Shown here one piece after another: positions 22,347 to 45,619 of a stretch of DNA of 64,000 nt. This DNA is from Nemertoderma westbladi (lineage: Eukaryota; Animalia; Xenacoelomorpha). The notes below the pieces were generated by a model. The model was not told the origin of the DNA and did not search any database. It saw nothing but the letters and a program-made list of their open reading frames with translations. Position numbers and translations under genes: made by a program. The stretch lies in contig JAUCBJ010006899.1 in assembly GCA_032718475.1 (NCBI GenBank), forward strand, positions 1 through 64,000, in the 5' to 3' direction. The stretch's first letter is position 1. Each line of letters opens with the position of its first letter.

Positions 22347-22387
22347 TTAATGATTTAACAAGCCCAGAGAGATGCTTCTGAGTCATG

Positions 22388-24551
22388 TGATAAACAACCG
22401 CGACCTCTATACTAACAGCAGAACTGTTGAACAGACTAATACCCGTTAATATCCTTCTGCCAACCTAGTAAGTTCTCGTCTAACCAATAAGACACAAAGA
22501 CTGCTCTACTGTTAAGTAAAGGGGCTCAGGAGCGTGATATTACTAAATTGTAAGGGTTGCTAAATACAAAACCGCTACTTACCGTTAGATGGCGCTAATC
22601 TGCCGTCCGCTAATATATTTACTAATTTTACACAACTCCTGCAAAATCGCTTGTTCCTTTCTCTACCGATTGCTCAATAGAGAGCTAACTGTTCGAATCT
22701 ATGAGCCACGCAGGAATAACCAAAACAATAAACCCGAGTCGGCTCCCTAAGCTTACTTAAGACGAGTGCGAGAGGCCTTGCACTCAGAGTATTCTTACGC
22801 CTAATTTTATCACTATTAAAGCACGCTATTACCTACGTCTTTCTAATCGCGAATACTGGGGTTTCTCTAACGTAATGTGTGAATGCGAGAATATTTAAAT
22901 ATCAAAATGGTACAGTAATTGTCTCTCGTGGATAGTACCACTCTGGGTCTACAATTGCCTGCAGCTGGCTTTAGGCCAGCAAATCACTAGCGTTTCGTGC
23001 GTACCGAATAGTGCGTTCTAGCTGATTGCCCGCTAATGCAAATAACTGCTCAGCGTGAATAGTTTACAGTACACTAATTATTACCTTAGCTACTCTCCGC
23101 TATGCTGCGTACTAATTCTTAATTTTTTACTAATTAATTACAGTCACAAATATTTAACAGCGTACTAATTACTAAGAGTTCCAGAATACGTAATTCTAAT
23201 TTATCACGCAACAGGTTTCGCTAGTAATAGCCTAAATTGCCGTATTACTTTGACCTAATCAGTAACTAATTGTTGTAACTAAGAAATAGAAACCAATCAA
23301 AGAGAAAAGAGCGCCTACCTAAACATTCACAATCATAGGCACACTTCAATAACACACCAATCAGCGTTAGAAATCACAGTTTACAATTATGCAATTCACT
23401 ACTCGTACTCCACACTCAACGTTCGAAACGTTATGATACGTGCAGGCCTCTCCCGGGTACATATAGGACTCCTAACTAACCTGATTCCCGCCCCCCTAAT
23501 ACTAAATAGAGACGAAACCTGGATCATCAGCCCCCTAATTACCGTACCGGCGATTGGTCTGCGTACCACAGCGTTAACTTCCCGACCGCAACCGTGACCC
23601 CACGCCAGCGTTGCTCGCTTTGAATCCTCCGCTCTCCCTTAGTCGCCCAACCCCCCGATGTGCCCACCGCCCGCTGGCGCCTTAGCCCTCCATTACGCTA
23701 ATAGCTACCGTAGCGGCACATGCAAATCACAAAGTCTGACAGTCTCAGAAATCCCTTAGGATTATTGCGCAGAAAAGAATCACATAGAACCATTAATCAA
23801 AGGTAGAAATCATAGTTCAATTGTAATTAGCAGTAATCGAAGGAATTATTGAGAAACACAAGCAAGTAATCGCACTAGCAAATCATTTCACGAAATTAAT
23901 CAAATTAGCAAATTGCAGAAAGTACGATATCCTAATACAAAATTAGAGACAGCTCAACAGCAGTGAGAATGTGTCATGTGAGTGAGAGATTGATGATAGG
24001 CTCTACCGGCACACCGCCAATTTATAGGTGATCCGGGTGGGATGATGCAATAGGGTGACTCAATCGCTCTCCTATTGGCTCTCCAGTCCATGCTAGCATT
24101 AGACCAACCTGGAAGCAGTTAATCCAATAAGGAGGCCGGATTGTAGCCCTATTGCTCAAATTATTACCATATATGGTAATGGATCACGTCTCTGGCTGCT
24201 GAATGGCCAGGACGGCGTCCCTATGCTAGCCCTATCAAACTAATATCAGCAAGCACAAAATCCAGGGTCCGAGTAAACTCGCTACCCTGGGACTATCTAC
24301 ATATATCCTAATACAAAATTACGTAGGTAGGGCTACATACTATACAAAATGGATGGTTTCAAATATATGGGCGTTTTGATTTCCCTACCTAAATACCACT
24401 GCGTTATTATGCCTTATCTAAAATATCATGCTGCACAACGGACTAATATTACGTACAGTATAACGGACTAATATTGCATACTGCATAACGGACTAATACT
24501 GCATACAGTATAACGACTAATAATGTGGATACAGCGCCATATACCGTAACA
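22388..24551 (-). repeat. 3' LTR of the BEL/Pao element
   Basis: Direct repeat of 39208-41371 (offset 16,820). Only four mismatches seen by eye (22952, 23047, 23593, 23718). TG...CA termini. Confidence 0.97.
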
Positions 24552-25040
24552 CCGCTCCAAGGGAAATCATATAATGTTTCCCTCCAATTGTAGAAGAGTA
24601 TAAGGTGATGTATACAAAACAAAATAAATTTCTTCCAACCAATCTAAATAACATAATAATTCTACTATTTACAAATATTGCCATAGATATTGCATAATGA
24701 ATTACATACAAATTAAATTTACAAAATATTATCTCTCTCATTGTTTAACGATTATTACATACAAATTAAATTTACAAAATATTGTTTCTCGTTCATTCTT
24801 ACTACATAATGATTACTACATACAAAATCAAATATAAAAATTTTGCTAGGGCAAGTGAAAGGAGTAAGCCAAACCCGCAGGTTTGTCTCCCCAATCACTT
24901 CCTTCGCCTCTTTCATAATATAAATTCAAATAACTCAACTAGTGTATATGAGTCTAGTCGAAGATTTTCAAATGCTACAATATACATCAGAGCGACGATG
25001 ATGTATATATCTAGAGTCTGTCGCCCTGTGCCATAATGTA

Positions 25041-26426
25041 TTATCGACCCGCTCCTGGGTTCTTTGGGCTCGCTCCTCTCTTTCGCCCCCTTCCCAGATA
25101 CACTAATCGTCCTCTAGTCGACTCCGTTGACGGCGTCCGTGAGGCGTCACTCCCCGGAACCGACGACGACGTTCCCTGAGCCCCGACAGATTCTCGGCTC
25201 GAACTTCTCCCTCGGCCTCGTCCCAATTGTCGCGCTCCCGTGGTCGCTTCCGCCAACTCTTCCTTATGCAGTTGCACACGCGCTTTCTCCGACGCCCCCT
25301 GCGCCTTGCGCTGCAACCGTTGAGCTTCTATAATTGAATGATAGTGATCGTCCTTGACTTGACGCTTGTCTTGGACCCCTCCTCCTGGTTCTTTCCGCGA
25401 GCCTTGAGCTCCAGCGGTCGTCGCTGTGGTCGCTGCGATCCTTTGTTCCTGTATCCTCTCGGCGGTCAATGAACCCACTGGCACATGAGTCAACAAGAAT
25501 TCGTTGCGGTATTGTATAGCCGCCATCCTCCAATCACCTCGCGCGCGTACCACTTTTCTAGTCTCCGTAAATACACCCTTCGTGATGCGATCGCAAATAG
25601 CAACGAAGTTCCATGTGTACTTATTGTCCATGTTCAATTGTCTGAAGTATTCTCGGACTACGATAACTCCAGTGTTTTGTGGAAGGTCTTGAGCAGTTAG
25701 GATGAGCTCCTGATATTGTGGTAGCGATTGTAGATATGGCTCGTACGCAACATGCGATGGGTCTACCGCCCAAAACCCATATCCTGCTTTAAATGGTAAC
25801 CAACGCATCTGCGCTTGAATATGGTAATCCGCCACACTCTCCCACTTATCTAACATCTCCCGAAGTAGGTTAGCGCTATGGTTTTGAAAGGAATCATCTC
25901 GCAGCTGGCATCTCGCGCTACGATGTCCCTTTACCCCACAATATCCACATTGAGAAATGAAGACGGTGCACGTGTGAAACGAATGGTCGGTCTCATTACA
26001 CCAACGACAGACCTTATGCGCCGCCTCTACTACCGCGTCGCACGACTTTAGACTGTGCCTTGTGCTGCCGCACAATTTGCACCTACGCGCTTGTGGAAAC
26101 CAGGCCCTCTCGTATATGAGGTCTCCAATCGGTTTCGCACTTCCTTCCTTCCCAATGTCTAATACGATGTCGTCCTCTCCAGTCAACGGTTGTCGATCCG
26201 GAACAAAGTAAACATCCTCGCCCTTGTCCTCTATCTCCAATATTTCCTCCCGCGTTCGTTTCGGATATGTCTTCTCCACCGGAAGATCTACTCCGAACAC
26301 CTCTACTAACGTTTCCGGCCAGCCCTCCTTAACAGGTCTATCAGCCTCCGAGTGGAAGGGAGTACCAAACCCGCGGGTTTGATTCCCGAACCACTTCTCC
26401 AAAGCTTCTGGCGTCGGATATTCCAT
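25041..26426 (-). CDS. Cargo ORF, C-terminal part: three CCHC zinc knuckles plus RG/RS-rich basic tail (461 aa)
   Basis: CKLCGSTRHSLKSC, CRWCNETDHSFHTC and CGYCGVKGHRSARC (all CX2CX4HX4C); tail LGRGRGRSSSR...LGRGRKRG. In frame with the 771-aa ORF across GAC TGA CCG TCG ATG. Confidence 0.85.
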   Translation of the reverse strand: MEYPTPEALEKWFGNQTRGFGTPFHSEADRPVKEGWPETLVEVFGVDLPVEKTYPKRTREEILEIEDKGEDVYFVPDRQPLTGEDDIVLDIGKEGSAKPIGDLIYERAWFPQARRCKLCGSTRHSLKSCDAVVEAAHKVCRWCNETDHSFHTCTVFISQCGYCGVKGHRSARCQLRDDSFQNHSANLLREMLDKWESVADYHIQAQMRWLPFKAGYGFWAVDPSHVAYEPYLQSLPQYQELILTAQDLPQNTGVIVVREYFRQLNMDNKYTWNFVAICDRITKGVFTETRKVVRARGDWRMAAIQYRNEFLLTHVPVGSLTAERIQEQRIAATTATTAGAQGSRKEPGGGVQDKRQVKDDHYHSIIEAQRLQRKAQGASEKARVQLHKEELAEATTGARQLGRGRGRSSSRESVGAQGTSSSVPGSDASRTPSTESTRGRLVYLGRGRKRGASPKNPGAGR

Positions 26427-26432
26427 CGACGG

Positions 26433-28748
26433 TCAGTCTCCCAAATCTCCGATGTTCTGTCGATATACTCCTTCGAATATCGCTAATCCTCTCCTCACCA
26501 TCGACGTATTCTCTAACGATTGGTTGAAGAACGGGGTTAAGAAACGCTTCATCACGTCGGATTGGATTCCCCCTTTCGAGCGAACGTATTGATCTCCTCC
26601 GAATACCAATGGATGACGCTTCAAAACTCGCGCAACGATATCCGCTAATAAACAAGTCACCGTGTTCGACTCAAGCACCAAATAATATTGTAGCGACGCA
26701 CGGGGTGGCGCGCAAATGTTCCAATACACTAACGCTTGCCGCTTGAAGTGGGATTTGAACTCCGCTCCCGGTGGCGTGTTGTATTCGCCATACGCCTCCT
26801 CGTACTTCTTTTGCGTCTTTAACTTAAAGTCCCAATTATACAACAAGTGTGCTATAAAGCCCATACCAGTCTTGGCAGAGTTGGGATACTCCCTATAAAT
26901 TCCAATATCCTGTGCCCATAGCAACAATAGCTTGGTGTCGACAAACGGTCTCGGCAATCTATCTTCCAGATCAGTCATGGCGTTGAAGTCACTCTCCAAA
27001 TCGCTCTGGACTCCCGATCCCACCTTGACGTAATCTTGGTTGAGAATAGCCTCTCTAACTTTCTTGGGTAACATCCTGGCGTCGATACGCTCCGCTCCGT
27101 GCATACCTCCTCGCCTGCATACCTCCAAAATCTGTTCCCTAGGATCCTTCCCCTTCCGATATTGTGTCGTTATGATGGGCTCCGGTCTCTCTCGATCCGC
27201 CCTCACACGCATAAACACATGAGTCACACCATCGGCCGCACGAATTTGAATACACTTGCTAGTCAAGCATTCCTGATGGGACCCTCCTTCATTGTCGTAG
27301 AACATCACCCTCCAATCCTGCAGTGATTCCTCCGTCTTCCTCCACCGACGCTGAATCTCGTCTGATGGGGTCCACATGCGCTCGATCGCCTTGTGGTCAT
27401 CATATCGGGTATAAGAACCCTTCCTCCTCAGCCACGTCTGGTCTACCTCCTCGTCGTCTGGGAATGTAGCCACCGCGACCCATACCTTGATGTACTTATC
27501 CAACCATCCGAATAGCTTACTCTCCTTCCCCGGAGCTCCAATCTTATCCAACGTGTCATAATCTATGATCTGCATTGGGACATCACGCAAGAACTTCGCG
27601 CATAAAACTTCCCGTAGACAGTCAACGTTCCAATGGTCCGCCATTCTTACCATCGGCAAGAATCGTATCGCTTCTCGCGACTCCGGATGATCTACTAATA
27701 TCGCAGGTTCGGTGCCGTCGGAATAATACACCGGTCCGGGTTGAGATACGACCTGTGGAACAAATCCGGTCACTCTCCTCGTCTCCTCTTGATGTCTATC
27801 CGCGGTCTTATTATACTCCGCTATCCTGTTCTCAAATAACTCTTTCGCCTTCGCCGCTCGCTCCTCCTGCCGCAACGCGTCTATGTCGTCCTGATGCTCA
27901 GGCGTGAGGCTTCTCACTCGGTGAGGTGAAGTAAACGCAGTCCAGGGACTCGAGAGCTCCAAACCCGCGGGTTTGGTACCCGAGTCCCGCGCCGCTTCGC
28001 GCCGCGCCTCTAGATCCTTATAGGCTCGGTACAGCGAAATGGCCGCTGCCGTCTCTATCAAACTGGGTGTCGAACAGGGTTTAATCTCCGTATACGGATC
28101 TAATGTCGTAACGGTCGGCGTAATGGGTCTCGGAAGTCGCTTTCCACTGAAGTCGATACTGATCATCGGGTTGCTCATCGGGTAACCTCCCTCGTTGTAT
28201 CTAAGGAATTGGTGAGCTGGACATCGCGTTAATATCGGTTCCGGATGTTGCTCGTCTAGTCGGTCGGGAATCGCCACGTCCTGTTTATTCATGCATTCAC
28301 CACACTTGTAGAAGAGCTTGTATACGCTGAAGACCTTCGGCGTCTCCTGATCCTCGCCTCGAGTCCTCCGATACAGGTGCATTCCGTCGAACTGGTCTCG
28401 GACTGCAGGTAGAGGCTCCTCATGTCGTAAATACATATTCATATGGTATAGTCGTGCGATTTCCTCGTCCGGATCTGCGCTAATGTCGCACACGACCAAA
28501 GCAAAGTCGTAGGGATACCGCGTGCGATACTCTTTCCGCAAAACTTCCATCCGGTCCCCCAACGCTCTCATTCTTTCTCTCCGTAATTCTTTATCATAAC
28601 TTGGTTTATACTTCCCGTTCAGCTCCATCACGGACCGCCCATGGTAGTAAACGTTAGAGTCTTTACATCCTGGTCGCGCGAATGGTAGCTCCGCCTCCTC
28701 TCTGGCAGTAAATCCTCTGCGCGGTTGCGCTCTAATATCCCTCTCCAT
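26433..28748 (-). CDS. Cargo ORF, N-terminal part: DEDDy (RNase D/WRN/EXD2/Mut-7-like) 3'-5' exonuclease domain after an unknown N-terminal region (771 aa)
   Basis: ExoI VMFYDNEG (27288-27296), CIQIRA, LPKKVREAIL.Q.YVKVGSGVQSD (ExoII, 27000-27026), FVDT, GMGFIAHLL...K, YW...LQYYLVLE (ExoIII YxxxD/E, 26670-26690). Order and spacing match DNA_pol_A_exo1. Confidence 0.8.
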   Translation of the reverse strand: MERDIRAQPRRGFTAREEAELPFARPGCKDSNVYYHGRSVMELNGKYKPSYDKELRRERMRALGDRMEVLRKEYRTRYPYDFALVVCDISADPDEEIARLYHMNMYLRHEEPLPAVRDQFDGMHLYRRTRGEDQETPKVFSVYKLFYKCGECMNKQDVAIPDRLDEQHPEPILTRCPAHQFLRYNEGGYPMSNPMISIDFSGKRLPRPITPTVTTLDPYTEIKPCSTPSLIETAAAISLYRAYKDLEARREAARDSGTKPAGLELSSPWTAFTSPHRVRSLTPEHQDDIDALRQEERAAKAKELFENRIAEYNKTADRHQEETRRVTGFVPQVVSQPGPVYYSDGTEPAILVDHPESREAIRFLPMVRMADHWNVDCLREVLCAKFLRDVPMQIIDYDTLDKIGAPGKESKLFGWLDKYIKVWVAVATFPDDEEVDQTWLRRKGSYTRYDDHKAIERMWTPSDEIQRRWRKTEESLQDWRVMFYDNEGGSHQECLTSKCIQIRAADGVTHVFMRVRADRERPEPIITTQYRKGKDPREQILEVCRRGGMHGAERIDARMLPKKVREAILNQDYVKVGSGVQSDLESDFNAMTDLEDRLPRPFVDTKLLLLWAQDIGIYREYPNSAKTGMGFIAHLLYNWDFKLKTQKKYEEAYGEYNTPPGAEFKSHFKRQALVYWNICAPPRASLQYYLVLESNTVTCLLADIVARVLKRHPLVFGGDQYVRSKGGIQSDVMKRFLTPFFNQSLENTSMVRRGLAIFEGVYRQNIGDLGD

Positions 28749-29509
28749 TATGCCTCGCGTATATACATATATATATATCCCAATAAGTGCCGTTACGTAA
28801 CCAACTACACTGTGGGTAAATCAGTTAGATGCCGCCGAAGGACAGACCTCCCGAACCCCCCCCCGCCTTCCAGCAGTTCAGGTTCGACTCTCTAGATCCC
28901 GTCTCTTCCTAACTAACTATCCTCTAACCTATTCCCATGCATAGCGCAAAAACTTTGGAGATAAACTGGCCGTGACCAACTCACTTTTTGATGCCCAAAC
29001 TACTCCCATTACTCCTACTAAACTACAGTAGTTAGAAAGGACCATAGCCACAATACTCGACTATACCAAACCCACAGGTTTGATAATCGAACATCACACA
29101 TCCTGCAAACTACTGAGTGGGGTCCGTGCACGCCTCTGGTGCTACTAACCTTTAGCACCCTAGTTGCACTGTTGGCACCAATCTGTGGAAGTTGCTAAAC
29201 TCAATTTACACTCCTACGTAATATAGCCGTCACCATGGTTTCTAAATGCTATTTTCCAGGCTTCACGACTTTCAAATTACTGTTTATCTATAGACGAATT
29301 CTAAAACGCGTCTATACACAGCGTCTGGAATTGTCTTGGGTTCACTTCTAATTTTTTAAAATTTTAAATTTTCCAAAAAATTTTTGAAAATAAAATTTTG
29401 TTTTGATACCCACCAGACAAAACTCAACGCAAATCACCACAACCCCGCTCCTATGCATTTCCGTGTATTTGCATACGAGGAATGCATACGAAGTGAGTTG
29501 CCTCTAACA

Positions 29510-30560
29510 CTAACTCTGTTTGGAGGCAGGAGACAAATTATAATCTCCCGTCTCGATACGTGTCTCCTCTAATAACACAATATCTTGGACCGGTCGGTCC
29601 AAGGTGTGTAAACCATTAGTTTTACACTTTTTTGGGTGCGGACACTTGCACCTAATTTTCACAGTGACTGTGCGCACTATGTTTTGCACGTCTGGGTGTG
29701 TGTGCGAGATCACTCCTGTCTCCCAATACTTTCTCTTGACAATGGGTTCGGTTATCAACACGTAATCTCCCCTTTGGAGACTCCGAACCGTTTTGTACCA
29801 CTTTGTTCTGGTAGATATGGTGGGAAGATAGTATTCCCGCCAATATTCCCAGAATGTGTACGCCACAAACTGTGTTACTTTCCAGCTTTTACGACTATAT
29901 AGGTCGGCACTAATGGGTTCTGATGCCGGCACAAGAAATGCTGGACTCTGCATTAGCAAATGATTCGGCGTTAATGCAACACCGTCTGGCAACATAGCTA
30001 TCGGACTCGAGTTTAGGGTATGCTCGATTTCAATGAAAGCTGTGACCAGTTCGTCGTCGGTAAGTTGTTTGTTCACAGGCAACGTCTTAGCAATGGCCTG
30101 CTTTACAGAGCGAACTAAACGCTCCCAACTTCCTCCTCTCCAAGGACTCTCTGGAGTATTGAATCTCCATTCTACTCGTTGCGGCAAAAGTGCTGCAGAA
30201 ATTTCCTTATTCTGTGCTACTTTATGAGCCGCATTCAACTCGCTATTCCCTCCGACAAAGTTTGTACCCTTGTCAGAGTAGAACGCCTTTACTAGTCCTC
30301 TCCTGGCCATAAATCTCTTCAAGGCCAGGAGCAGAGATTTGGTCGACATGTCTGCCACACGCTCGATATGTATGGCTCTACTAGCCATACATGTCAGTAG
30401 CAGACCCCATCGCTTGTGGGTCAGCCGTCCACTCTGCTTCAATCGGACCAAAACAATCCACCCCTGTGTTCGTAAAGGGTGGGTCATATGCCTGCACTCT
30501 CGCTTCCGGGAGTTCAGCCATCTCCTGTTCCAATACTCTGGTGTTCACCCTCTTGCAAAC
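29510..30560 (-). CDS. BEL/Pao integrase core and C-terminal (DUF5641-like) region, frameshifted from pol
   Basis: CLVCK..EMAELPEARV..PFTNTGVDCFGP (frame between the listed ORFs), TCMASRAIHIE, YSDKGTNFVG, PWRGGSWERLV, LTPNHLL, FW..W..YYL....RTKW. Two frameshifts near 30565 and 30440. Confidence 0.92.
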
Positions 30561-33500
30561 CAGACAGGCGTCGTACTGCCCTGCTTGGCTGCAATAGAAT
30601 GAATCGCTGTCTCGCTGCCGACAGACAGTGTAACTTTCCCGCGTGATGCAACCTCTTGTGTATATCCCATAGAATCGCTCTTTGCAATTCCATCGGGTAA
30701 CTAGGGATTATCACTGGGAATCGAAACTGTGAGTTTATGTCGACAGTCTGGATTCTCGATCTATGACAAATCAAACCCTTATGGATTAATGGACTCCATT
30801 TTCTAAGGGGTTTATAGAGAACTGGTCGTTGAGCCGATAATAGATGGAATTCTTTAGGGAAGGCACACATTTGATAATGTTTCAAATGCTTTAATTCCGC
30901 TTGATCAATCTCATCCTCCGTCAGAGGTTGTTTCAATTTCCGAATTCGCTCACTATTGGTGCTCAATGGTTCTCTCAAATGTTTCGAATATTTTATACAA
31001 AGGTACGAAACGTATCGGCTTAACCACGCAGTTCTTTTACAAATTGTCAGCCAAGAGGCAGACGAATTTAGTAATTTGTCATAAACACTGCATGACTCTA
31101 ATGCCAGCGACGGTTGTCCGCTAACCAATGGAAGTTTCGAATCCAAACCCGCAGGTTTGGAAACCAAAGACTCCATTTTGTCGGTCATTTTCTGTCCGTC
31201 ACTTACCAACTGTGACTCCGGTTTAGTCTGTAAGGGTGGTTTTACGTCATAACTTACCCTTCCAGACCTAGTAGTCACGTAAGTCTGTTGGTCTGACAGG
31301 TCTCCGGGCCGCTCCAATAACTCTTCAGGCCGCTCTAATGACTCTTCAGGCCGCTCCAATGACTTAAGTTTGGCTTTAGACTTCGACTTAGAGACTTTCT
31401 CCACTTTGACTTCTGCATCTTCAGGCATCGGATTGGTCACTATCTTTAGTCGCTCTGGCCAATGTTCCTGTGTCCTCGTTAGAAAATCAGGTCCATGCAA
31501 CCAAAACTCCTGCGACTCTTCCTGACAGAATTCCGCCGGCATTGCACCTCTCGAAGTTATGTCGGCCGGGTTCAACACTCCCGGACAATGTCTCCATTGT
31601 TCCTTCGTCGAAAAGTCGACGATCTGAGCGCGTCTATTGGCCACAAATGTCTTTAGTGCAATATTGTCGGCCGCAATGTATACTAACACCAAGGATGCGT
31701 CCGTCCAATAGAATAAGGTCAATGTCGTGTCTAACTCCTCAGTTATTTGCTTACTTACCTCGACCGAAACTACAGCCGCCTGTAACTCTGCACGAGGGAC
31801 AGTCATGTATTTGACCGGCATTGTCTTTGATCTAGAAGTCACAAAGGCCGTCTCAAATTTGTCCTGACTTACCTCTCGGCGAAGGTAGGCTACCATACCA
31901 AAGCCGGTGTCACTTGCGTCACTGAACAGATGCCGCTCTAAATCAGTTGGAAATACCAGCTGATTCGGAAAGTAGGAACGGGGTACATCTATATTTTTCA
32001 ACAGATGCAACTCGGCTTCCCACTCCCTCCACTGCTTTGCATGTATAGGAGATATTGGTTCGTCCCACTCTAAGTCGGACAACCAAATTTTCCTCATGCA
32101 CGCTCGTGCCTGTAATATAACCGGACTGATAAAGTTCATCGGGTCAAATAGTCTACTTAATGTCGATAAGCAAATCCTCTTTGTCAAAACTTTGTCTGGG
32201 CTACTGGGCTCAAATCTAACTCTTACCTGGAACTTATCCGAATTCGGATTCCAAGCGAGTCCCAGTACTCGCGCCATGGGGATTGGTTCTACCCCCAATT
32301 CTATGTCTCCGCTCCCGCGATCCTTTACCGGGAACGATTCTAATAGGGCCTCCGAGTTAGTAGTGAACTTGGTCAGAGGAAATCCCCCTGTAGCCAAGCA
32401 CTCTTGCAGGCCGTGAGCCACTTCTATGGCTTGTTCCGCCGTGTCCTTGGACACCAAGCCGTCGTCCATATAGAAGTTTCTCAAGATAGACTCGATTACT
32501 TCTACTGGATACTTACCAATCTGGGCTGTTGCCGTTTTCTTTAGAACGAACAGCGTGCCATTCGGACTATCGCGGGCGCCAAATATCCTAACGTACATTT
32601 GGTATGTAACCACTGGGCCGGATAAGTCTTCATTCTCAAACCAGAGAAAGCGAAGGCTATCCTGGTCTGCCTTACAGGCTCTTACCTGGTGGAACATCGC
32701 CTCGATGTCACAAGTAAATGCGAATCGCCGCTGTCTAAAACGCAACAGTATTCCAATCAAATAGTTATTCAGGTTGGGACCATCCATCAACTCTGAATTC
32801 AGGGACATACCTCTATAGACTGCTGCGCAGTCGTTGACTACTCGGACTTTGTCTGGCTTGTCGGGGTGAGTCACATAGTGGTGTGGAAGGTAATAAGTCT
32901 GGTCTGTCACTAAGTCAGGGTCCTCTACCTTCCCAGCAAATCCCTTGGCGAAATAGTTGTTGATCTGGGCGCAATACTTCTCCCTAATGTCCGGATTCTT
33001 CAACAACCGAGCCCTTACTCCGTTTAATCTTTTCAAGGCTAAGCTGTAGTTGTTCTCCAACTTAGGTGGTTGTCGACGCCACAACATTCCAACTTCAAAA
33101 TGTCCAGTCGGTAGCAGACGTATGGTGTCTTCCATCATCTCCAACGACCGTTTCTCATCAGTAGACATGGCTAGGTCATATCCACCGGGTTCCATTGCGT
33201 CCCTATCCAGCCATTCGACAGTTCTGGCTCCTGTCTCGAGGTCCTGGCGTATCAATTCCTTCTGTAATTCCTCCTCACTGTATTGGAAAATGTCTAGGTC
33301 TCGATATTTAGCCGCTTGACCCTCCACTATGTCTGTATAAGTCAAAACGTTAGTCAGATAAGTAGCGTGGGCCGCTGAACCAGACCCACGGGTCTGATAA
33401 CAGTAGTCCTCGGGTTCACTATCTGTCCGGTCGTTATGAAGTGGTTCCGACAACCTAACATTATCGGGAATCAACTCCTCGTCCGACTCGCTAAAGTCAC

Positions 33501-36459
33501 TATAGTGGTCAATACAGGTTCTCCTAAACTCGTCTATGTCTGGTGGTTCTACTAACGGTGGTTGAGTTATAGGCTGTAATTCGTCGTATCTGTCCATTGG
33601 CTTGTCGCCACCTGTAAACTCATAAGACATGGGTACTCTTGTATACCAACCTAGTATGGTCCTATGGGCATGTGGTCCATTGACATGCGGCTCAGCCGGT
33701 CTCGTTTCCCATATCTGGTGTGCGATCAGCTGTTCTGCACCAATCAACATAGAAACATTCCTATAACCTACCTGGTGTCTCGGTATCCTGAGCTTGTCAA
33801 AATACTCCTGTGCTATGGGACTCATCGGCGGCACCTTACCTAACTGCCTGCCGAATCCCTTCATAGCTAGACACTTAAATCCGTCCAATGGCAAAGCTTT
33901 CCGTTCTTGTCGAGTGTGTTGGTCTCTCGGAAGTAGGGAATCTAGTTCTACCGAAATTCTGTGTCCCTTGAGGTCTCCTACCCCATGCATAGACTTCAAC
34001 TCTATTTGGATCTCCTCGGCGTCCTGGAAGCTAGAAACAGCTCTCGCCACTTCCTCGTCGATATAGGATAATGTGGACGCAGTGTCCAACATCACATATA
34101 TTCGCTTCGATCCCTTATCGCCAGTGAGTTTCACCGGAATCACGCTAAATATTTCCGACGTGGCCGATGATAAATACGTCCGCGCGCTGGTCGATGAACT
34201 ATCCGCGGTGAAACCTTGGCAGGTCACTTCTCTCGCGCTCGACTCGCCATCCTCGTCCGACGAACCTGGTTGGTAACCATCGTCCTGAATGCCGGTGTAC
34301 ATATTCCTTCTTATCGATACGGGTTCTTTGCTCCCCTTCCTGTGAGGATTTCGCTGTAAGTAACGGTCCGTTGGGGTATGGAAATCCGCATGTAGCAACT
34401 TGTGATGTAGTCTGCCGCATTCCATGCATCCGTCCTTGCTGTTCGGGCACTGCCGCCGTACATGTCCTGGCGCAAGACATGCCCAACAGGTGTCCAACGT
34501 CCGCACTTGAACTCTTCTCTGTTCCGAATTTAATTCCTTGAACCGTCTGCAACTATCCAACTTATGGTCGTCAGATCTTACCTCCTTTAGTAAACAGTAT
34601 TGGCAACCTACAAATCCATCCGGCAACTCCTGTTGCTTTAACCTAGGTCTATCTAACCGCTCACCTGACCATACTCGCGAGTCTGATCTAAAGGCTGGGG
34701 TATTCGAATTATATCTGTCTACTGAGTTATAAGTCACAGTGGTCCTGTCATCGTCAAAACTTACCATAGACTTACCGGTAACAGGTTTAGACTCCCTCAT
34801 ATTCTCCTCTGAGAAGTTTGATTTCATCTCTGCTACTGCGTCTGTGGCTATCATGTCATGAATATGCTGAAGTGTCAATACCTTACCTTGGCCCTCCAAC
34901 TTATTCTCTAATTTGCGCCATTTCTGTCGATAACGCATGTTTAAACGTCTTATTACGCTCTTTAAAACTTCGGCGTGATCACCATGATGAGGTAGATTCA
35001 CCGTCTTCAAGATGTCCAATGCGTTCGAAATAGCGTTCGCTAAGTTCAACAGCTCTAACGGAGTTGTAATCCTTCCGCCCTTACCCAAGTCTTCTACTAT
35101 CGACTGCGCCATTTTCGTTTTATTCCCGTAGATGTCGCTAAGCGTCTTCATCGCTAATTCGAATGCCCGTTCATTGCCGACGAAGTTATCAGCAATGGCT
35201 CTAGGTTCTCGATGGAGCATCTGAAGCAAATAGTTGAACTTCTCGTTGGGAGTAAAGGTGCTGTTGGTTAGCTGCTCGTCGACATAGGTTTTGAAGGTCC
35301 TCCAATGCTTATGGTTACCCATAAACTTCTGGGGTTGTTGCGTCGGCAGTCCTTGCCTAGCAGCAAACTTACCTATGTCCCTAAGGGTTGCGTCGTTCCG
35401 GGTTAACAAATGGTTTAGTTCCGCAGGGTTGTTAAGTCTGGTCCTTTCCCGGTGGTTCCAACTTACCTGCTCCGCGTCCGTCCTTCTTTCCTTATAGTTT
35501 CGGGACTTCTGACGTCTCATTTCTTCCTCTTCATCGCTTGACTCGGTGTCAGTCCTTAGCGCTCGCGATGGTTTGCGCGCCGAGGCCCTGACCCAAGCTT
35601 CCTCAATAAATCTTTCCGCCGAATTTTCGAAATTGGGATTATGGATATTCGGGACAGGCGTCCTTACCTGAGGTCTATGTGGTATAGTCTCCTCCGATAT
35701 ACGTACTCGTTGACTAGGCTGGACTTTATCTAATTCAGGCCTGCTGGGATTTGAATTACTTCTTACCTGGGCTGCTTCCTTTAACCGTAGGTTGCTAAGC
35801 ATGTCCGTTATAGGTTGGATGTGCGGCGATATAGCTTGCGCTAAACTAGCACTTAACTCATCTCTCGTAATAAATTCCTGGCTAGGGTTCTGTTGTATAG
35901 TCGGCTCTATCTGAGTAATCCGCTGTCTCTCATATGATCCCTCTTCCGGTTTAACCCGGAAGTTCTCCGTCGAACTGGGTCGGCGCTCCGTCCGCGTATT
36001 CCAAACCCGCGGGTTCGGTTCGCCAAGTACTCGTCCTGTCGGAGTTTCTCTAAACTCTCCGTTGTCGCGTTCGGTGTATAGTGGTGCGGTGTTCCGATGA
36101 CGTAGATCCTGGGCGATGGGTGAAGCACTAATACCAACTGGCGTGCGATATGTAGAGAACGGTTTAGCGATCCGTGTACTCGTAATAGCTGGACCGGGTA
36201 TAGGAATTCTGGTCGTCGTCGACTCGCGTATAGTCGGAGTTCTCGCTTCCTGTTCGGCCTTCTGCAGTGCGAACAGTTCTCGCAACTCAGTCCCTACACT
36301 CGCCCCACATTCTTCGATCATTCGCATCCCCTTCTCGGCGATTTCGTTCGCCTTCCTAGTCCGTTCTTCGCTCTCTAAACTTAATCTCGCACTTTCCAAC
36401 TGCGCCAGTTTACGTTCTTCTTCTTCCCTCGCTCGTCTCGCTGCGCCCTCTTCTTCCAC
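30514..36459 (-). CDS. BEL/Pao gag-pol: DUF1759 gag, three Zn knuckles, protease, RT, RNase H, integrase N-terminus
   Basis: QKFMGNHKHWRTF..EKFNYL; CQYC..HKLDSC, CWACLAPGHVRRQC, CMECGRLHHKLLH; MLDTAST; YYLPHH, KVRVVND, GPNL, DIEAMFHQV, LRFLW, FYMDD; FSDAS, PRAELQA, WTD, NPAD.SRG; IHKRLHHAG. Confidence 0.97.
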   Translation of the reverse strand: MEEEGAARRAREEEERKLAQLESARLSLESEERTRKANEIAEKGMRMIEECGASVGTELRELFALQKAEQEARTPTIRESTTTRIPIPGPAITSTRIAKPFSTYRTPVGISASPIAQDLRHRNTAPLYTERDNGEFRETPTGRVLGEPNPRVWNTRTERRPSSTENFRVKPEEGSYERQRITQIEPTIQQNPSQEFITRDELSASLAQAISPHIQPITDMLSNLRLKEAAQVRSNSNPSRPELDKVQPSQRVRISEETIPHRPQVRTPVPNIHNPNFENSAERFIEEAWVRASARKPSRALRTDTESSDEEEEMRRQKSRNYKERRTDAEQVSWNHRERTRLNNPAELNHLLTRNDATLRDIGKFAARQGLPTQQPQKFMGNHKHWRTFKTYVDEQLTNSTFTPNEKFNYLLQMLHREPRAIADNFVGNERAFELAMKTLSDIYGNKTKMAQSIVEDLGKGGRITTPLELLNLANAISNALDILKTVNLPHHGDHAEVLKSVIRRLNMRYRQKWRKLENKLEGQGKVLTLQHIHDMIATDAVAEMKSNFSEENMRESKPVTGKSMVSFDDDRTTVTYNSVDRYNSNTPAFRSDSRVWSGERLDRPRLKQQELPDGFVGCQYCLLKEVRSDDHKLDSCRRFKELNSEQRRVQVRTLDTCWACLAPGHVRRQCPNSKDGCMECGRLHHKLLHADFHTPTDRYLQRNPHRKGSKEPVSIRRNMYTGIQDDGYQPGSSDEDGESSAREVTCQGFTADSSSTSARTYLSSATSEIFSVIPVKLTGDKGSKRIYVMLDTASTLSYIDEEVARAVSSFQDAEEIQIELKSMHGVGDLKGHRISVELDSLLPRDQHTRQERKALPLDGFKCLAMKGFGRQLGKVPPMSPIAQEYFDKLRIPRHQVGYRNVSMLIGAEQLIAHQIWETRPAEPHVNGPHAHRTILGWYTRVPMSYEFTGGDKPMDRYDELQPITQPPLVEPPDIDEFRRTCIDHYSDFSESDEELIPDNVRLSEPLHNDRTDSEPEDYCYQTRGSGSAAHATYLTNVLTYTDIVEGQAAKYRDLDIFQYSEEELQKELIRQDLETGARTVEWLDRDAMEPGGYDLAMSTDEKRSLEMMEDTIRLLPTGHFEVGMLWRRQPPKLENNYSLALKRLNGVRARLLKNPDIREKYCAQINNYFAKGFAGKVEDPDLVTDQTYYLPHHYVTHPDKPDKVRVVNDCAAVYRGMSLNSELMDGPNLNNYLIGILLRFRQRRFAFTCDIEAMFHQVRACKADQDSLRFLWFENEDLSGPVVTYQMYVRIFGARDSPNGTLFVLKKTATAQIGKYPVEVIESILRNFYMDDGLVSKDTAEQAIEVAHGLQECLATGGFPLTKFTTNSEALLESFPVKDRGSGDIELGVEPIPMARVLGLAWNPNSDKFQVRVRFEPSSPDKVLTKRICLSTLSRLFDPMNFISPVILQARACMRKIWLSDLEWDEPISPIHAKQWREWEAELHLLKNIDVPRSYFPNQLVFPTDLERHLFSDASDTGFGMVAYLRREVSQDKFETAFVTSRSKTMPVKYMTVPRAELQAAVVSVEVSKQITEELDTTLTLFYWTDASLVLVYIAADNIALKTFVANRRAQIVDFSTKEQWRHCPGVLNPADITSRGAMPAEFCQEESQEFWLHGPDFLTRTQEHWPERLKIVTNPMPEDAEVKVEKVSKSKSKAKLKSLERPEESLERPEELLERPGDLSDQQTYVTTRSGRVSYDVKPPLQTKPESQLVSDGQKMTDKMESLVSKPAGLDSKLPLVSGQPSLALESCSVYDKLLNSSASWLTICKRTAWLSRYVSYLCIKYSKHLREPLSTNSERIRKLKQPLTEDEIDQAELKHLKHYQMCAFPKEFHLLSAQRPVLYKPLRKWSPLIHKGLICHRSRIQTVDINSQFRFPVIIPSYPMELQRAILWDIHKRLHHAGKLHCLSAARQRFILLQPSRAVRRLSGLQEGEHQSIGTGDG

Positions 36460-37911
36460 TCACGACCTTTCTTCATACAATGCGCGTCTTCTTTTCTCGA
36501 TCTCGAGTTCGCGTTCCTTGCGTCCGCGTTCAAGTTGAAGCTCGCGCTCCTTCTGTTCACGATCGAGTTTCTTGCGCTCGCGTTCGGCTTGGAGTTCGCG
36601 TTTCTTCGCTTCCTGTTCGCGTTCGAGTTGGAGTTCGCGTTTCTTCGCTTCCCGCTCGCATTCAAGTTGGAGTTCGCGTTCTCTCTGTTCGCGTTCGAGT
36701 TCCTCGCGCTCGCGCTCGGCTTGGAGTTCGCGTTCCCTTTGCTCGCGTTCCGCTCGCTCGCGCTTACTTATCTCTTCCAACTCTCGTAACTCTGCGTCAA
36801 ACTTACGTGTGCGCTCCCGTTCCCGCTCGGCTTCCTTCCGTGCTTCCTGTGCACGCAAAACTTCCGCCTGCTGTTCGTCTAGTCGGCGTCTTCTCTCCTC
36901 CGCCGAGTTGTGAGAAACAAGGGATCTAGCACATATTACCTTACCTCGCGTGTGACTAACCTGGGAATCGCCGCTGTCTCTAGATGCATCGTCGGGTGGA
37001 GTTAACGTCCTCTGTTGGATGTTCTCCGTCGTCGGTAGCACCTGGCCTGGTACCACCACTCCATTCTGCATCAGCCAGCTAGTAACTTCCCTCTGATAAC
37101 GGCGCTCTTCCTTATCTTGGATCTCTTCCCGCTCCACTAAGTCTCTTAACTCTGCGTCACTCACCTGAGTCGCCTGCGCTTGTGATGCCCATAGCAGCCA
37201 GTTCTCCGTCCTAACTCGTCGGAATCGCTCCGATAACTCGCGGTGCTCTAACAAGGCTGCTAAAACCCTGTCGTAAATCCTCGTCGCCACGTCGCTTGAC
37301 TGAGACTCCACTGCCTTCTTCGCTAGGACTGCAAGCTCCTCCGTCTGCTTGAATAACGCTGAGTTATATCCTCTTCTAATCTCTGCTAACTCTACCCTCC
37401 CGATGTTCGCTGGGTCAGCTAACATCTTCCTTACCTTGTCCGCCGTCCGAGTTATATGTCCGGCATGCGCGCGAAGTTTCTTCTTTATCGCGATATCGAA
37501 CTCTCTATCACTCACCTGACTTACGCTCGGTGGACTTGAAGGATTATTTCGGGAACTACGGGTACTCCTTACAGCCGTCGGGACCACGGCACTTACCATA
37601 CCCACAGGTCTGGAAACCGGGCTCCGGGCTCTCGCTTCTGCTACACTACCCTCCCTATCACTCACCTCTGTCCGGGCTGCTGTGCAGTCCTTCCTTACAG
37701 TAGCGGTAGGGGATCCTAATACTATTACTTGAGGTTGTTGTTCTTCCTCACTAGTCACTGTCTCGTCCTCCTGTTCACTTACGTCAGCGTCGCTCGCTGC
37801 GTCGTCATAGTCGGCATTGTCATCAACAGTAATGTTTACGCTATCGTCAGTCGGCGGTCCAGCCGCCGTCTCGTAGCTGTCCTCTAGTGCCTCTTTGTCT
37901 GAGACACTCAT
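36460..37911 (-). CDS. N-terminal gag extension (acidic, helical, E/R coiled-coil repeats), in frame with gag-pol across one TGA
   Basis: First ATG at 37911 (MSVSDKEALE). The stop TGA at 36460-36462 is followed directly by GTG GAA in the same frame (EERS*VEEE). Confidence 0.8.
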   Translation of the reverse strand: MSVSDKEALEDSYETAAGPPTDDSVNITVDDNADYDDAASDADVSEQEDETVTSEEEQQPQVIVLGSPTATVRKDCTAARTEVSDREGSVAEARARSPVSRPVGMVSAVVPTAVRSTRSSRNNPSSPPSVSQVSDREFDIAIKKKLRAHAGHITRTADKVRKMLADPANIGRVELAEIRRGYNSALFKQTEELAVLAKKAVESQSSDVATRIYDRVLAALLEHRELSERFRRVRTENWLLWASQAQATQVSDAELRDLVEREEIQDKEERRYQREVTSWLMQNGVVVPGQVLPTTENIQQRTLTPPDDASRDSGDSQVSHTRGKVICARSLVSHNSAEERRRRLDEQQAEVLRAQEARKEAERERERTRKFDAELRELEEISKRERAEREQRERELQAEREREELEREQRERELQLECEREAKKRELQLEREQEAKKRELQAERERKKLDREQKERELQLERGRKERELEIEKRRRALYEERS

Positions 37912-39207
37912 AGTCCAAATAATATTTGCCTTCCGGCAAAAATCTCTCGCAAAGTTCGAGATATAATTATAATTTAACCGAAATACGGTCAAATTATTTG
38001 TCAAATAATCAGTTGGTCCAAAATGTCAAAATAAATTCGCAATGCAATATTGCGAATTTAATGGGGTATATAGTTATAGCAAATACTAGCACAATATTTA
38101 AACAAAATATTATTATATAGCTACTATATAATATTAAATACCGGTATAGCACAAAATAACTCTGAATCTAATACAAAATATTCAAAATAAACTTGCCGCC
38201 CGAATATTTCTAATTTTATATATAGCTCTAATCAACGTAATTTTAGTTTCAAATATTATATGTATCCACTAGCGCGTGGCTACATCTTCGGGTTGCGACT
38301 CTCTCTAACTCTCTCTCTAACTTGAGCGATTCAAAACCATGGCCGGCTAAACCTAAATATCCTAACTAATAAATTGAGTTCAGCTTCGCAGTTAAACAAC
38401 CGATAATTTTTTACTGCTTCCACAAACACACCGGCGCCAACAGAACAACTAACCTTGTTTGCTGTGAGATTCCACGTCCGCGTCCAAAGATTCAGGCCCT
38501 TCGCTGATTGCAAACCGAACCCGCAGACCCACACGAACCCCAAACTCAGAAGTCCCGTCTTGCCATGTATCTCCAGATGGTATAAAATAACTAAGCGGTT
38601 ACCTAACATACCGTTACAAAACTCTAGAATTTTACAAATAATTTTGACCGAAACTGAATTCTCGCAAACCTAGCTAATAATTTTCAAAAAACTTACTAAT
38701 TACAGTTTGCCCTAAGGCCTAAGGAACTGCTGTATTCGCAATTAGCAAAACGCACTACCGTACATCCACTGTATGCAGTACAGTAAGTAAAACAGTACAC
38801 CAACCTAACAGCCTAATGATACTGTGTGTGGTACGGCAAACAAATGTCCTTCTACCGTACGCAGTAACAGCAATCAGCCTAATGTACTACTGTACTAGTG
38901 TACGCAGCCAGTGAATACAGTAATATAAACTAACAGCCTAAAGGAATATACTCAATGTTCTACCGTACGCTAGCCTATAGCCTACAGCAGACGATCACGT
39001 GCTCCAATTTATTGCCTAATACTATGATACTACTATCAGCCTAAGAATACTCTATCTGCCTTACTGTACGCAGTACAGCAAAGCAATACAGCACGTATCA
39101 CTGATACAAAGTATCAGTGATCTAAACTAACAGTAGTCTAAACTAACAGCCTAAGAATACTCTATTTACTGTACGCTACAGCCTACAGCAAACAAAACAC
39201 GTATCAC

Positions 39208-41371
39208 TGATAAACAACCGCGACCTCTATACTAACAGCAGAACTGTTGAACAGACTAATACCCGTTAATATCCTTCTGCCAACCTAGTAAGTTCTCGTC
39301 TAACCAATAAGACACAAAGACTGCTCTACTGTTAAGTAAAGGGGCTCAGGAGCGTGATATTACTAAATTGTAAGGGTTGCTAAATACAAAACCGCTACTT
39401 ACCGTTAGATGGCGCTAATCTGCCGTCCGCTAATATATTTACTAATTTTACACAACTCCTGCAAAATCGCTTGTTCCTTTCTCTACCGATTGCTCAATAG
39501 AGAGCTAACTGTTCGAATCTATGAGCCACGCAGGAATAACCAAAACAATAAACCCGAGTCGGCTCCCTAAGCTTACTTAAGACGAGTGCGAGAGGCCTTG
39601 CACTCAGAGTATTCTTACGCCTAATTTTATCACTATTAAAGCACGCTATTACCTACGTCTTTCTAATCGCGAATACTGGGGTTTCTCTAACGTAATGTGT
39701 GAATGCGAGAATATTTAAATATCAAAATGGTACAGTAATTGTCTCTCGTGGATAGTACCACTCTGGGTCTAAAATTGCCTGCAGCTGGCTTTAGGCCAGC
39801 AAATCACTAGCGTTTCGTGCGTACCGAATAGTGCGTTCTAGCTGATTGCCCGCTAATGCAAATAACCGCTCAGCGTGAATAGTTTACAGTACACTAATTA
39901 TTACCTTAGCTACTCTCCGCTATGCTGCGTACTAATTCTTAATTTTTTACTAATTAATTACAGTCACAAATATTTAACAGCGTACTAATTACTAAGAGTT
40001 CCAGAATACGTAATTCTAATTTATCACGCAACAGGTTTCGCTAGTAATAGCCTAAATTGCCGTATTACTTTGACCTAATCAGTAACTAATTGTTGTAACT
40101 AAGAAATAGAAACCAATCAAAGAGAAAAGAGCGCCTACCTAAACATTCACAATCATAGGCACACTTCAATAACACACCAATCAGCGTTAGAAATCACAGT
40201 TTACAATTATGCAATTCACTACTCGTACTCCACACTCAACGTTCGAAACGTTATGATACGTGCAGGCCTCTCCCGGGTACATATAGGACTCCTAACTAAC
40301 CTGATTCCCGCCCCCCTAATACTAAATAGAGACGAAACCTGGATCATCAGCCCCCTAATTACCGTACCGGCGATTGGTCTGCGTACCACAGCGTTAACTT
40401 CCCGACCGCAACGGTGACCCCACGCCAGCGTTGCTCGCTTTGAATCCTCCGCTCTCCCTTAGTCGCCCAACCCCCCGATGTGCCCACCGCCCGCTGGCGC
40501 CTTAGCCCTCCATTACGCTAATAGCTACCGTAGCGGCGCATGCAAATCACAAAGTCTGACAGTCTCAGAAATCCCTTAGGATTATTGCGCAGAAAAGAAT
40601 CACATAGAACCATTAATCAAAGGTAGAAATCATAGTTCAATTGTAATTAGCAGTAATCGAAGGAATTATTGAGAAACACAAGCAAGTAATCGCACTAGCA
40701 AATCATTTCACGAAATTAATCAAATTAGCAAATTGCAGAAAGTACGATATCCTAATACAAAATTAGAGACAGCTCAACAGCAGTGAGAATGTGTCATGTG
40801 AGTGAGAGATTGATGATAGGCTCTACCGGCACACCGCCAATTTATAGGTGATCCGGGTGGGATGATGCAATAGGGTGACTCAATCGCTCTCCTATTGGCT
40901 CTCCAGTCCATGCTAGCATTAGACCAACCTGGAAGCAGTTAATCCAATAAGGAGGCCGGATTGTAGCCCTATTGCTCAAATTATTACCATATATGGTAAT
41001 GGATCACGTCTCTGGCTGCTGAATGGCCAGGACGGCGTCCCTATGCTAGCCCTATCAAACTAATATCAGCAAGCACAAAATCCAGGGTCCGAGTAAACTC
41101 GCTACCCTGGGACTATCTACATATATCCTAATACAAAATTACGTAGGTAGGGCTACATACTATACAAAATGGATGGTTTCAAATATATGGGCGTTTTGAT
41201 TTCCCTACCTAAATACCACTGCGTTATTATGCCTTATCTAAAATATCATGCTGCACAACGGACTAATATTACGTACAGTATAACGGACTAATATTGCATA
41301 CTGCATAACGGACTAATACTGCATACAGTATAACGACTAATAATGTGGATACAGCGCCATATACCGTAACA
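39208..41371 (-). repeat. 5' LTR of the BEL/Pao element
   Basis: Direct repeat of 22388-24551, followed by TSD TCATG. Carries three to four ~25-bp tandem units (AACGGACTAATA) near its U3 start. Confidence 0.97.
40836..41000 (-). promoter_or_regulatory. Putative LTR promoter: CArG box in an 18-bp palindrome, CCAAT boxes, TATAAA
   Basis: ATTACCATATATGGTAAT at 40983-41000 (CCATATATGG fits CC(A/T)6GG); minus-strand TATAAA at 40841-40846. Both are conserved in the diverged solo LTR (19347-19364 and ~19208-19213). Confidence 0.55.
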
Positions 41372-41599
41372 TCATGCTTGACCTGGGGTAGGTTTTTAGC
41401 AGTTTTAATTTAGAAAATGACCGTTCTGCTGTAATTTTCAATTCAATTTCAATTTCAATCCGGGATAGGCCCGGGCCTTTAATTTCGGAAGTTCACCTTT
41501 CGACATCTTATATATTGCAAAAAACCCAACACCAAAGGTCACCATAAAATGTTTAAGGTTGATCAGTATTTATTCATGAATGTGGGTGATATGATAGGC

Positions 41600-45547: not shown

Positions 45548-45619
45548 TAGGAGGAGAGGACCGCAATTCATCCGATCGCGACTGCAGATCGAATCAGCCA
45601 CCTGAAATACCGAAACCTT

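Follow-up and report, generated by a model that had tools for sequence, protein, structure and literature searches.

Nine copies of a predicted RNA hairpin spaced along the interior of a Bel/Pao retrotransposon of Nemertoderma westbladi

Why would a long terminal repeat (LTR) retrotransposon carry the same short palindrome again and again along its interior? The question is raised by contig JAUCBJ010006899.1 of the Nemertoderma westbladi assembly GCA_032718475.1, whose positions 1 to 64,000, hereafter the window, contain a minus-strand Bel/Pao LTR retrotransposon of 18,984 bp (22388..41371), delimited by paired LTRs and a target-site duplication. The original prediction had listed eight copies of an 18-bp palindrome in this element, seen as binding sites for a dimeric factor or as RNA packaging, dimerisation or protection signals. 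Our analysis shows that the repeat is real, selected and structured, and that an RNA hairpin on the sense strand describes its unit better than a palindrome in DNA does.

All eight 18-mers are present, letter for letter, where they had been placed. To these we add a ninth copy at 34669, absent from the earlier list, which is more degenerate and has a compensatory inner pair. When up to 4 mismatches to the perfect palindrome are allowed, the 14,656-nt interior contains 8 matches, whereas 300 dinucleotide shuffles gave 0.037 on average (maximum 2). The remaining 49,344 nt of the window, LTRs included, contain none, as had been claimed. In a seed-free control made post hoc, the largest dispersed family of 18-mers in the interior had 9 members, against 3-4 in all five shuffles. 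A covariance model built from the nine copies detected no tenth one in the window, no site matched an Rfam family (one chance-level match, E-value 4, fell off-site in the 19.5 kb searched), and none of the tandem arrays of the window contains the motif. The nine sites span 12.7 kb at intervals of about 1.6 kb, with none in the leader or in an LTR. Their spacing is indeed quasi-regular: gaps range from 1107 to 2237 nt, with a coefficient of variation of 0.24 (p = 1.7e-4 against random placement).

The element encodes gag-pol (29510..37911) and an additional gene, hereafter the cargo gene (25041..28748), both on the minus strand, as are all nine copies. Following the sense strand, hairpin 1 (37582..37625, core 37596-37613, loop UGUG) lies in the N-terminal region of gag, and hairpin 2 (35987..36030, core 36001-36018, loop CGCG), which has a G.U pair in its stem, is also in gag. 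Hairpin 3 (34655..34698, core 34669-34686, loop CGCG) has a compensatory closing pair, and hairpin 4 (33366..33409, core 33380-33397, loop CGUG) sits in the linker between protease and reverse transcriptase (RT); its compensatory G-C pair is the dyad-preserving change that had been noticed at 33380. Hairpin 5 (31129..31172, core 31143-31160, loop UGCG) occupies the linker between RNase H and integrase, and hairpin 6 (29049..29098, core 29066-29083, loop UGUG) is non-coding and forms a conserved island among family copies. Hairpin 7 (27945..27988, core 27959-27976), in the N-terminal region of the cargo gene, is a perfect palindrome, as had been said of it. Hairpin 8 (26351..26394, core 26365-26382, loop CGCG) is in the cargo linker that leads from exonuclease to zinc knuckles, and hairpin 9 (24855..24898, core 24869-24886, loop UGCG) is non-coding and precedes the 3' LTR.

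Seven of the nine copies are thus coding, with each of the three phases in use, and the other two lie in non-coding DNA, in agreement with the original prediction. The placement in linkers agrees with it too: the five Gag-Pol sites lie in poorly conserved stretches of the protein, where local identity among 40 homologues is 0.4-10%. At four of the five, homologues mostly have no residues, and none is in the RT/RNase H core. The two longest gaps between sites cover RT-RNase H and integrase. The use of three phases and of unconserved protein stretches supports the earlier view that the constraint bears on nucleic acid and not on protein. The covariance model did not find the motif in 49 related loci, and the peptides that it would encode are present in only 1 of 120 Pol homologues; the motif is therefore family-specific.

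On the element strand, the core reads YCARACC-YGYG-GGTHTGG, that is, a 7-bp stem closed by a YGYG loop. Among the 63 cells of the nine core stems, the departures are 5 U.G or G.U pairs on the sense strand, 2 compensatory pairs and 3 unpaired cells. The loop varies at positions 1 and 3 only, with seven C>T and no G>A changes on the sense strand. CpG decay as the source of these changes is ruled out, since it is expected on both strands and the ratio seen is 7:0. A second stem is formed by each copy's own flanks, with two extra bases on the 3' side and a different sequence at every site. At this +2 register, 40 of the 90 flank cells are Watson-Crick pairs, 14 are G.U and 1 is A.C. Swapping flanks between sites showed this lower stem to be significant (p = 0.00085, nine offsets being allowed for; p = 0.0008 in the energy version of the test). 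Changes on both sides were found in 11 of 17 pairs, compared to 6.7 in shuffles, and the covariation score was reached in none of 500 shuffles. The flanks differ between sites and yet pair, and we therefore speak of covariation among paralogous copies. RNAalifold, unaided, returned the same two-helix shape. On these predictions, it is highly probable that the copies form a stem-loop in the sense-strand RNA. The G.U departures, the one-way loop changes and the second stem also separate the options of the original prediction: they favour RNA packaging or dimerisation, and speak against a double-stranded DNA (dsDNA) site for a dimeric factor.

Two further predictions concern pairing between RNA segments. 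With G.U allowed, the loops are self-complementary at 9/9 sites on the sense strand and at 4/9 on the other, and the predicted homodimer gain of the sites is -7 to -20 kcal/mol. The half-site cluster that had been reported in the leader at 38511-38545 is present, and consists of loop-plus-3'-arm half-sites (38506..38545, minus strand). It has 22 contiguous predicted pairs with hairpin 2 (-36 kcal/mol, the best of 1765 windows), and in the same window scan it was not the best partner of any of the other eight hairpins. This predicted pairing is one hint of a long-range switch.

Conservation can be seen among family copies at the non-coding hairpin 6, where diverged family members retain the hairpin and lose its flanks. 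Contigs of three runs give 12 variant rows at 11 places around this site, none of them within 29057-29093, and diverged contigs from two runs match the window at 29056-29093 alone, being unlike it on either side. Outside its core, hairpin 6 has 15 contiguous sense-strand pairs; 7 of these are G.U, for which the opposite strand would have A.C. Taken singly, 5 of the 7 in-stem variants keep the sense-strand pairing, compared to 2.0 expected and to 4 of 7 for antisense pairing. Two of the five combined would yield a compensatory G-C pair.

The cargo gene comprises a long N-terminal region, a DEDDy exonuclease domain of the EXD2/Nibbler/WRN-like, 3'-5' type, a set of three CCHC knuckles and a helical domain that is conserved. 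The window copy is split by an in-frame TGA (26433-26435) between its exonuclease and knuckle parts, which are joined in a single open reading frame (ORF) in 8/8 distant homologues. The family profile matches EXD2 (E-value 9.5e-5), as well as the knuckles of Lin28 and nucleocapsid (NC). A weak fold model (predicted local distance difference test, pLDDT, 48.6) resembles the domains of Nibbler, EXD1, RNase D and Egalitarian with Z scores of 5.7-7.5; the best structural match has Z 7.5, a root-mean-square deviation of 4.7 and 170 aligned residues, and the best 50 rows are nearly all of DEDD type. The comparison supports a DnaQ-like fold for the modelled domain. In what we take to be the ExoI, ExoII and ExoIII catalytic motifs (D-x-E, D and YxxxD), the window copy keeps the D-x-E of ExoI and the D of ExoII, and has E in place of D in ExoIII. 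Profile, homologues and fold comparison thus agree that the exonuclease-knuckle ORF of the original prediction is present.

Word-index protein searches found no relatives of the cargo. A DNA pattern of the knuckle motif retrieved at least 120 metagenome loci (L001-L120), many of them with a Bel/Pao pol and integrase, about 30% identical, upstream; the cargo therefore marks a wider set of Bel/Pao elements. These loci, at least 120 in number, represent a widespread exonuclease and triple-CCHC cargo family that has no Pfam annotation. DEDDy cargo is also described for the bdelloid rotifer LTR retrotransposons Juno and Vesta, whose additional ORF3 follows pol and has an RNase D-like domain (PMC5408684). 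In contrast to these, the present element is a Bel/Pao, and its DEDDy domain is joined to the triple CCHC knuckles and to the conserved helical domain; the words 'hairpin' and 'zinc' are absent from the main text of the Juno/Vesta paper (PMC5408684).

Do related elements have hairpins of their own? A cargo-bearing Bel/Pao contig, L051, carries seven sense and no antisense copies of an unrelated hairpin, a score reached by 0/300 shuffles. The first lies in the linker between RNase H and integrase, the series continues across the cargo and reaches gag, and the sister loci L005 and L052 (67% identity) retain them at orthologous places. A third hairpin is present in three copies, with U.G and compensatory pairs, on L009 (0/400 shuffles), a 4.9-kb contig with the cargo and no pol. 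Judged from sequence, the dispersed-hairpin design recurs in unrelated families, each with its own sequences. Upon retest of 11 loci, L051, L009, L062 and L053 beat all shuffles; marginal results came from L005, L043, L047 and L018, and L007, L079 and L080 were not significant. The sets of L062 and L053 (for the latter, a margin of 25.2 versus 25.0) were set aside by inspection as codon-like repeats. Pooling the related loci by clade gave no further shared hairpin, and GC-rich codon repeats dominated the matches of generic k-mer and dyad scans. As controls we used 31 of 42 Bel/Pao loci, the short ones being left out; 29 of the 31 have no cargo match. None of the 31 has a hairpin set in its coding interior, and the five that gave p<0.05 did so, by inspection, through LTR-linked, flank or microsatellite repeats.

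On L051, integrase, an extra 711-aa ORF, the cargo and then a new gag follow each other head to tail with little spacer, an arrangement that suggests tandem copies or very short LTRs. Loci L121-L162, 42 in number, come from prokaryotic genome records and encode Bel/Pao polyproteins; most probably, host DNA was binned there with metagenome-assembled genomes.

As for the function of the hairpins, the reading that we tentatively favour, by analogy with known systems, is that of dispersed packaging and dimer-linkage signals read by the zinc knuckles of Gag. The nine copies, folded into bulged stem-loops in the genomic RNA, would be bound by these knuckles, and two copies of an unusually long RNA would in this way be selected, paired and packaged. 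The two invariant guanines of the YGYG loop, G2 and G4, might be held by the CCHC knuckles, as SL3 is by NC of human immunodeficiency virus (HIV). The HIV-1 SL3 (Psi) tetraloop also has G at positions 2 and 4, and NC knuckles are described as contacting its G7 and G9 (PMC7599994). Since YGYG is self-complementary with G.U, conversion of the hairpin into an intermolecular duplex is possible. Chaperoning by Gag may thus turn each hairpin into a duplex of at least 18 bp between two genomes, zipping them in register, which could help reverse transcriptase to cross breaks in an RNA of up to ~18 kb. The leader half-sites might in turn open hairpin 2 as a switch. Two features argue for packaging and dimer linkage, namely the invariant loop G2 and G4 at the positions gripped by NC, and the self-complementarity of every sense-strand loop.

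Each part of this scheme has a counterpart elsewhere. Packaging signals made of dispersed stem-loops are established in single-stranded RNA (ssRNA) viruses, and those of MS2 and of the hepatitis B virus pregenome share a motif across the genomic RNA, coding regions included (PMC6281560). Unlike these, the present signals belong to a chromosomal LTR retrotransposon, with nine sites 1.1-2.2 kb apart and a strongly kept 16-nt core. The Ty1 palindromes PAL1 and PAL2 are described as switching between a stem-loop in the monomer and an intermolecular duplex in the dimer (PMC9503155), as is predicted here from sequence. The Ty1 and HIV-1 signals, as these two sources present them, cluster at the 5' end, whereas the nine hairpins extend from gag to the 3' untranslated region and avoid the LTRs. 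The retroelement packaging and dimer signals of the papers cited here are 5'-end signals, and here a single signal is found nine times in linkers and spacers. If functional, the hairpins would carry the idea of dispersed signals, known from RNA viruses, over to an LTR retrotransposon of great length. They would also be a short and testable entry point to the selection by Bel/Pao elements of their own RNA, and to what the DEDDy cargo proteins of retrotransposons do. In full-text searches of openly available articles, we found no paper on evenly repeated hairpins in LTR retrotransposons or on cis-signals of Bel/Pao elements.

Several observations weigh against the RNA hairpin or its proposed role. 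The energy test of the lower stem is equally significant on the antisense strand (p = 0.00025), and the strand assignment therefore rests on the asymmetry of wobble pairs; the sense strand is G/U-skewed, with 12-22 G.U cells at other offsets. Tested singly against shuffled flanks, two of the nine sites reach p<0.05 on the sense strand. In a 418-nt context, hairpins 2 and 9 are predicted to be mostly unformed (0.11 and 0.02), and in 5/9 cases only does the best predicted dimer of a site form with a second copy of that site. Conservation among family copies was examined at hairpin 6 only, and its variants are linked and unphased, such that the nominal p of 0.002 overstates the effect (the core alone gives 0.075). 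On L051, the lower stem is not significant (p = 0.19) and its covariation was reached in 91 of 500 shuffles, and the loops of L051 and L009 lack the G2/G4 pattern. A scan for hairpin families gave p<0.05 at 16 of 64 related loci, compared to 11 of 64 for a mirror-repeat control. Most related elements show no hairpin family, and Bel/Pao packaging therefore does not generally need one. Finally, replacement of the GGAG loop had little effect on packaging in HIV, according to PMC7599994.

A different reader might be the cargo protein. The hairpins would then be RNA tags recognised through its three knuckles, in an anti-silencing or self/non-self system operating at the RNA level; this we regard as possible but doubtful. 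The protein would bind the RNA of its own family and protect it, or trim small or competing RNAs nearby, a detail in which we place equally little confidence. All three families with a clear hairpin set do carry the cargo, with hairpin sequences that differ, and none of the 31 control loci has such a set in its coding interior. The knuckle and EXD2 profile matches, the likeness of the fold to Nibbler, EXD1 and RNase D, and the D-x-E retained at ExoI in the window copy are also in favour. However, most cargo-bearing loci lack a hairpin family, as the 16/64 against 11/64 of the above scan indicates, and the fold model is weak. The original prediction had proposed to look for co-occurrence of motif and cargo. 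Hairpin sets were found in about 3 of 45 cargo-bearing loci versus 0 of 31 controls (p = 0.27), and the three hairpin-bearing families (the window element, the L051 clade and L009) are scattered on the cargo tree. These counts do not support the suggested coupling, and the tie of hairpin sets to the cargo is unproven. An accessory protein reading a family-private hairpin barcode, stamped at regular intervals over the whole element, to tell self RNA apart, as an RNA-level counterpart of VANC/VANDAL evolving family by family, is as doubtful as the reading of which it is part.

It is unlikely that the hairpins are read instead by a host RNA-binding protein for nuclear export, germline or oocyte transport, or protection from decay, in the manner of the I-factor and Egalitarian (Egl)-BicD. 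Egl signals such as TLS and ILS are described as having upper and lower helices parted by 3' bulges, with a 4-nt loop in K10, and include one in a retrotransposon coding sequence, the I-factor ILS; Egl itself has an exonuclease-fold domain (PMC13186709). With a tetraloop, two helices and a +2 excess on the 3' side, the window hairpins have a similar outline, their upper helix being of 7 bp. An Egl-type signal calls for two helices of 6 bp or more, with 3' bulges and spaced U-A pairs; the lower helix, however, has 8-10 of its 10 cells paired at three of the nine sites, and is short at several sites. Moreover, Egl recognises mainly shape, together with a few base-pair identities, and needs no more than one or two signals (PMC13186709), whereas the 16-nt sequence is fixed here and the cargo showed no Egl domains. 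Upper stem and loop are tightly kept within the family and differ between families, which suits a family-specific reader.

Could the sites nevertheless act as dsDNA, each palindrome binding a dimeric factor so that the element stays unmethylated or open over its full length, as with VANC on VANDAL? This proposal of the original prediction now appears improbable. The near-perfect 18-bp dyad and the even coverage of the interior agree with it, and VANDAL elements share with ours a short family-specific motif in many copies per element and an element-encoded accessory protein (PMC5735166). The observed-to-expected CpG ratio of the element, 1.11, indicates no depletion, compared to 0.44-0.49 in neighbouring host DNA and 0.29 in an old RT fragment, which keeps an anti-silencing role alive. 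However, a young element would show no CpG decay in any case, and the ratio does not rise near the sites (1.05 within 100 nt, 1.2 at 250-500 nt, 0.9 beyond 800 nt). The one-way orientation, the G.U-type departures and the variable, offset second stem are not predicted by a DNA site; the LTRs, which contain the promoter, are free of sites; and no dsDNA-binding domain was recognised in the cargo by Pfam and profile searches. The VANC motifs are described as 9-nt, non-palindromic and mainly non-coding, in dense tandem arrays within DNA transposons (PMC5735166), unlike the single copies found here, 7/9 of which are coding. Motif form and placement thus differ, and together with the second stem this makes the VANC analogy less likely.

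Even less probable is a role in reverse transcription, in which the hairpins, in plus-sense single-stranded DNA or on the template RNA, would serve for pausing, strand transfer or priming and so divide a very long template into segments. G.T wobble works in DNA, even spacing would suit segmented synthesis, and the cargo fold resembles DNA proofreading domains too. But a pause requires stability, not a fixed loop and stem sequence, and joints in family contigs did not recur at the sites among the 15 of 105 listed. Neutral relics of a small palindromic unit, spread by template switching or insertion, are largely refuted and very improbable: the flanks of the nine sites do share a faint consensus, the Gag-Pol sites are in insertion-tolerant linkers and copying of such a unit may well be the origin of the copies, but regular spacing, covarying flanks, conservation against diverged neighbours and orthologous retention in the L051 clade all oppose it.

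The host element is a young, high-copy Bel/Pao LTR retrotransposon, a group classed as Belpaoviridae (PMC9503155). Its 5-bp target-site duplication, TCATG, lies at 22383-22387 and 41372-41376. The 5' LTR (39208..41371) and 3' LTR (22388..24551), on the minus strand like the rest, are 2164 bp each, devoid of hairpin copies, separated by 4 mismatches and ended by TG...CA; the sole TATAAA of the 5' LTR is at ~40841-40846. Gag-pol encodes a DUF1759 Gag with three CCHC knuckles, then protease, RT, the Pao RNase H region and an integrase with DUF5641, in the order PR-RT-RH-IN. The Pfam markers DUF1759, Peptidase_A17 and DUF5641 are found with E-values of 1.5e-9, 4e-38 and 1.8e-17, and the closest homologues are 37-43% identical across RT-RH. 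A Pfam SLBP match in Gag (E-value 0.0095) was far under the cut-off and was judged to be due to chance. In the window copy, gag-pol is interrupted by a stop codon within gag (36460-36462) and, near 30.4-30.6 kb, by breaks of frame in the integrase region. Contigs from four runs, three for organism A and the fourth for organism B, match the element interior; two of these runs gave 24,347 and 10,739 records on it, with many variants, and the family is therefore large. The element forms a long branch without close kin in the integrase and cargo trees, and no relatives were found among viral contigs. Directly behind the 5' LTR, no TGG-type start of a canonical tRNA primer-binding site was seen.

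Some features of the element and of its surroundings are worth recording. Short tandem duplications, including a second copy of the LTR end, occur directly behind the 5' LTR (38800-39215), where a short palindrome spans the LTR boundary and family contigs are strongly variable. In Gag, an R/E-rich coiled-coil repeat (36496-36790) is made of 18-39-nt tandem units. An older, diverged relative of the LTR (17815-19682, 72-87% identity in pieces), probably a solo LTR, is found 2.7 kb from the full element. Another repeat is present in two copies (20600-22320 and 59700-61180), 94-97% alike in pieces, with G/C-run ends around GTCATATTGAC and internal tandem units of 35 and 163 nt; the retrotransposon sits at the right end of its first copy. 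Finally, the regions 44600-49600 and 57565-58641 contain fragments of three kinds: a tetraspanin-like ORF, a DDE transposase resembling that of Harbinger, and an endonuclease of LINE (long interspersed nuclear element) type.

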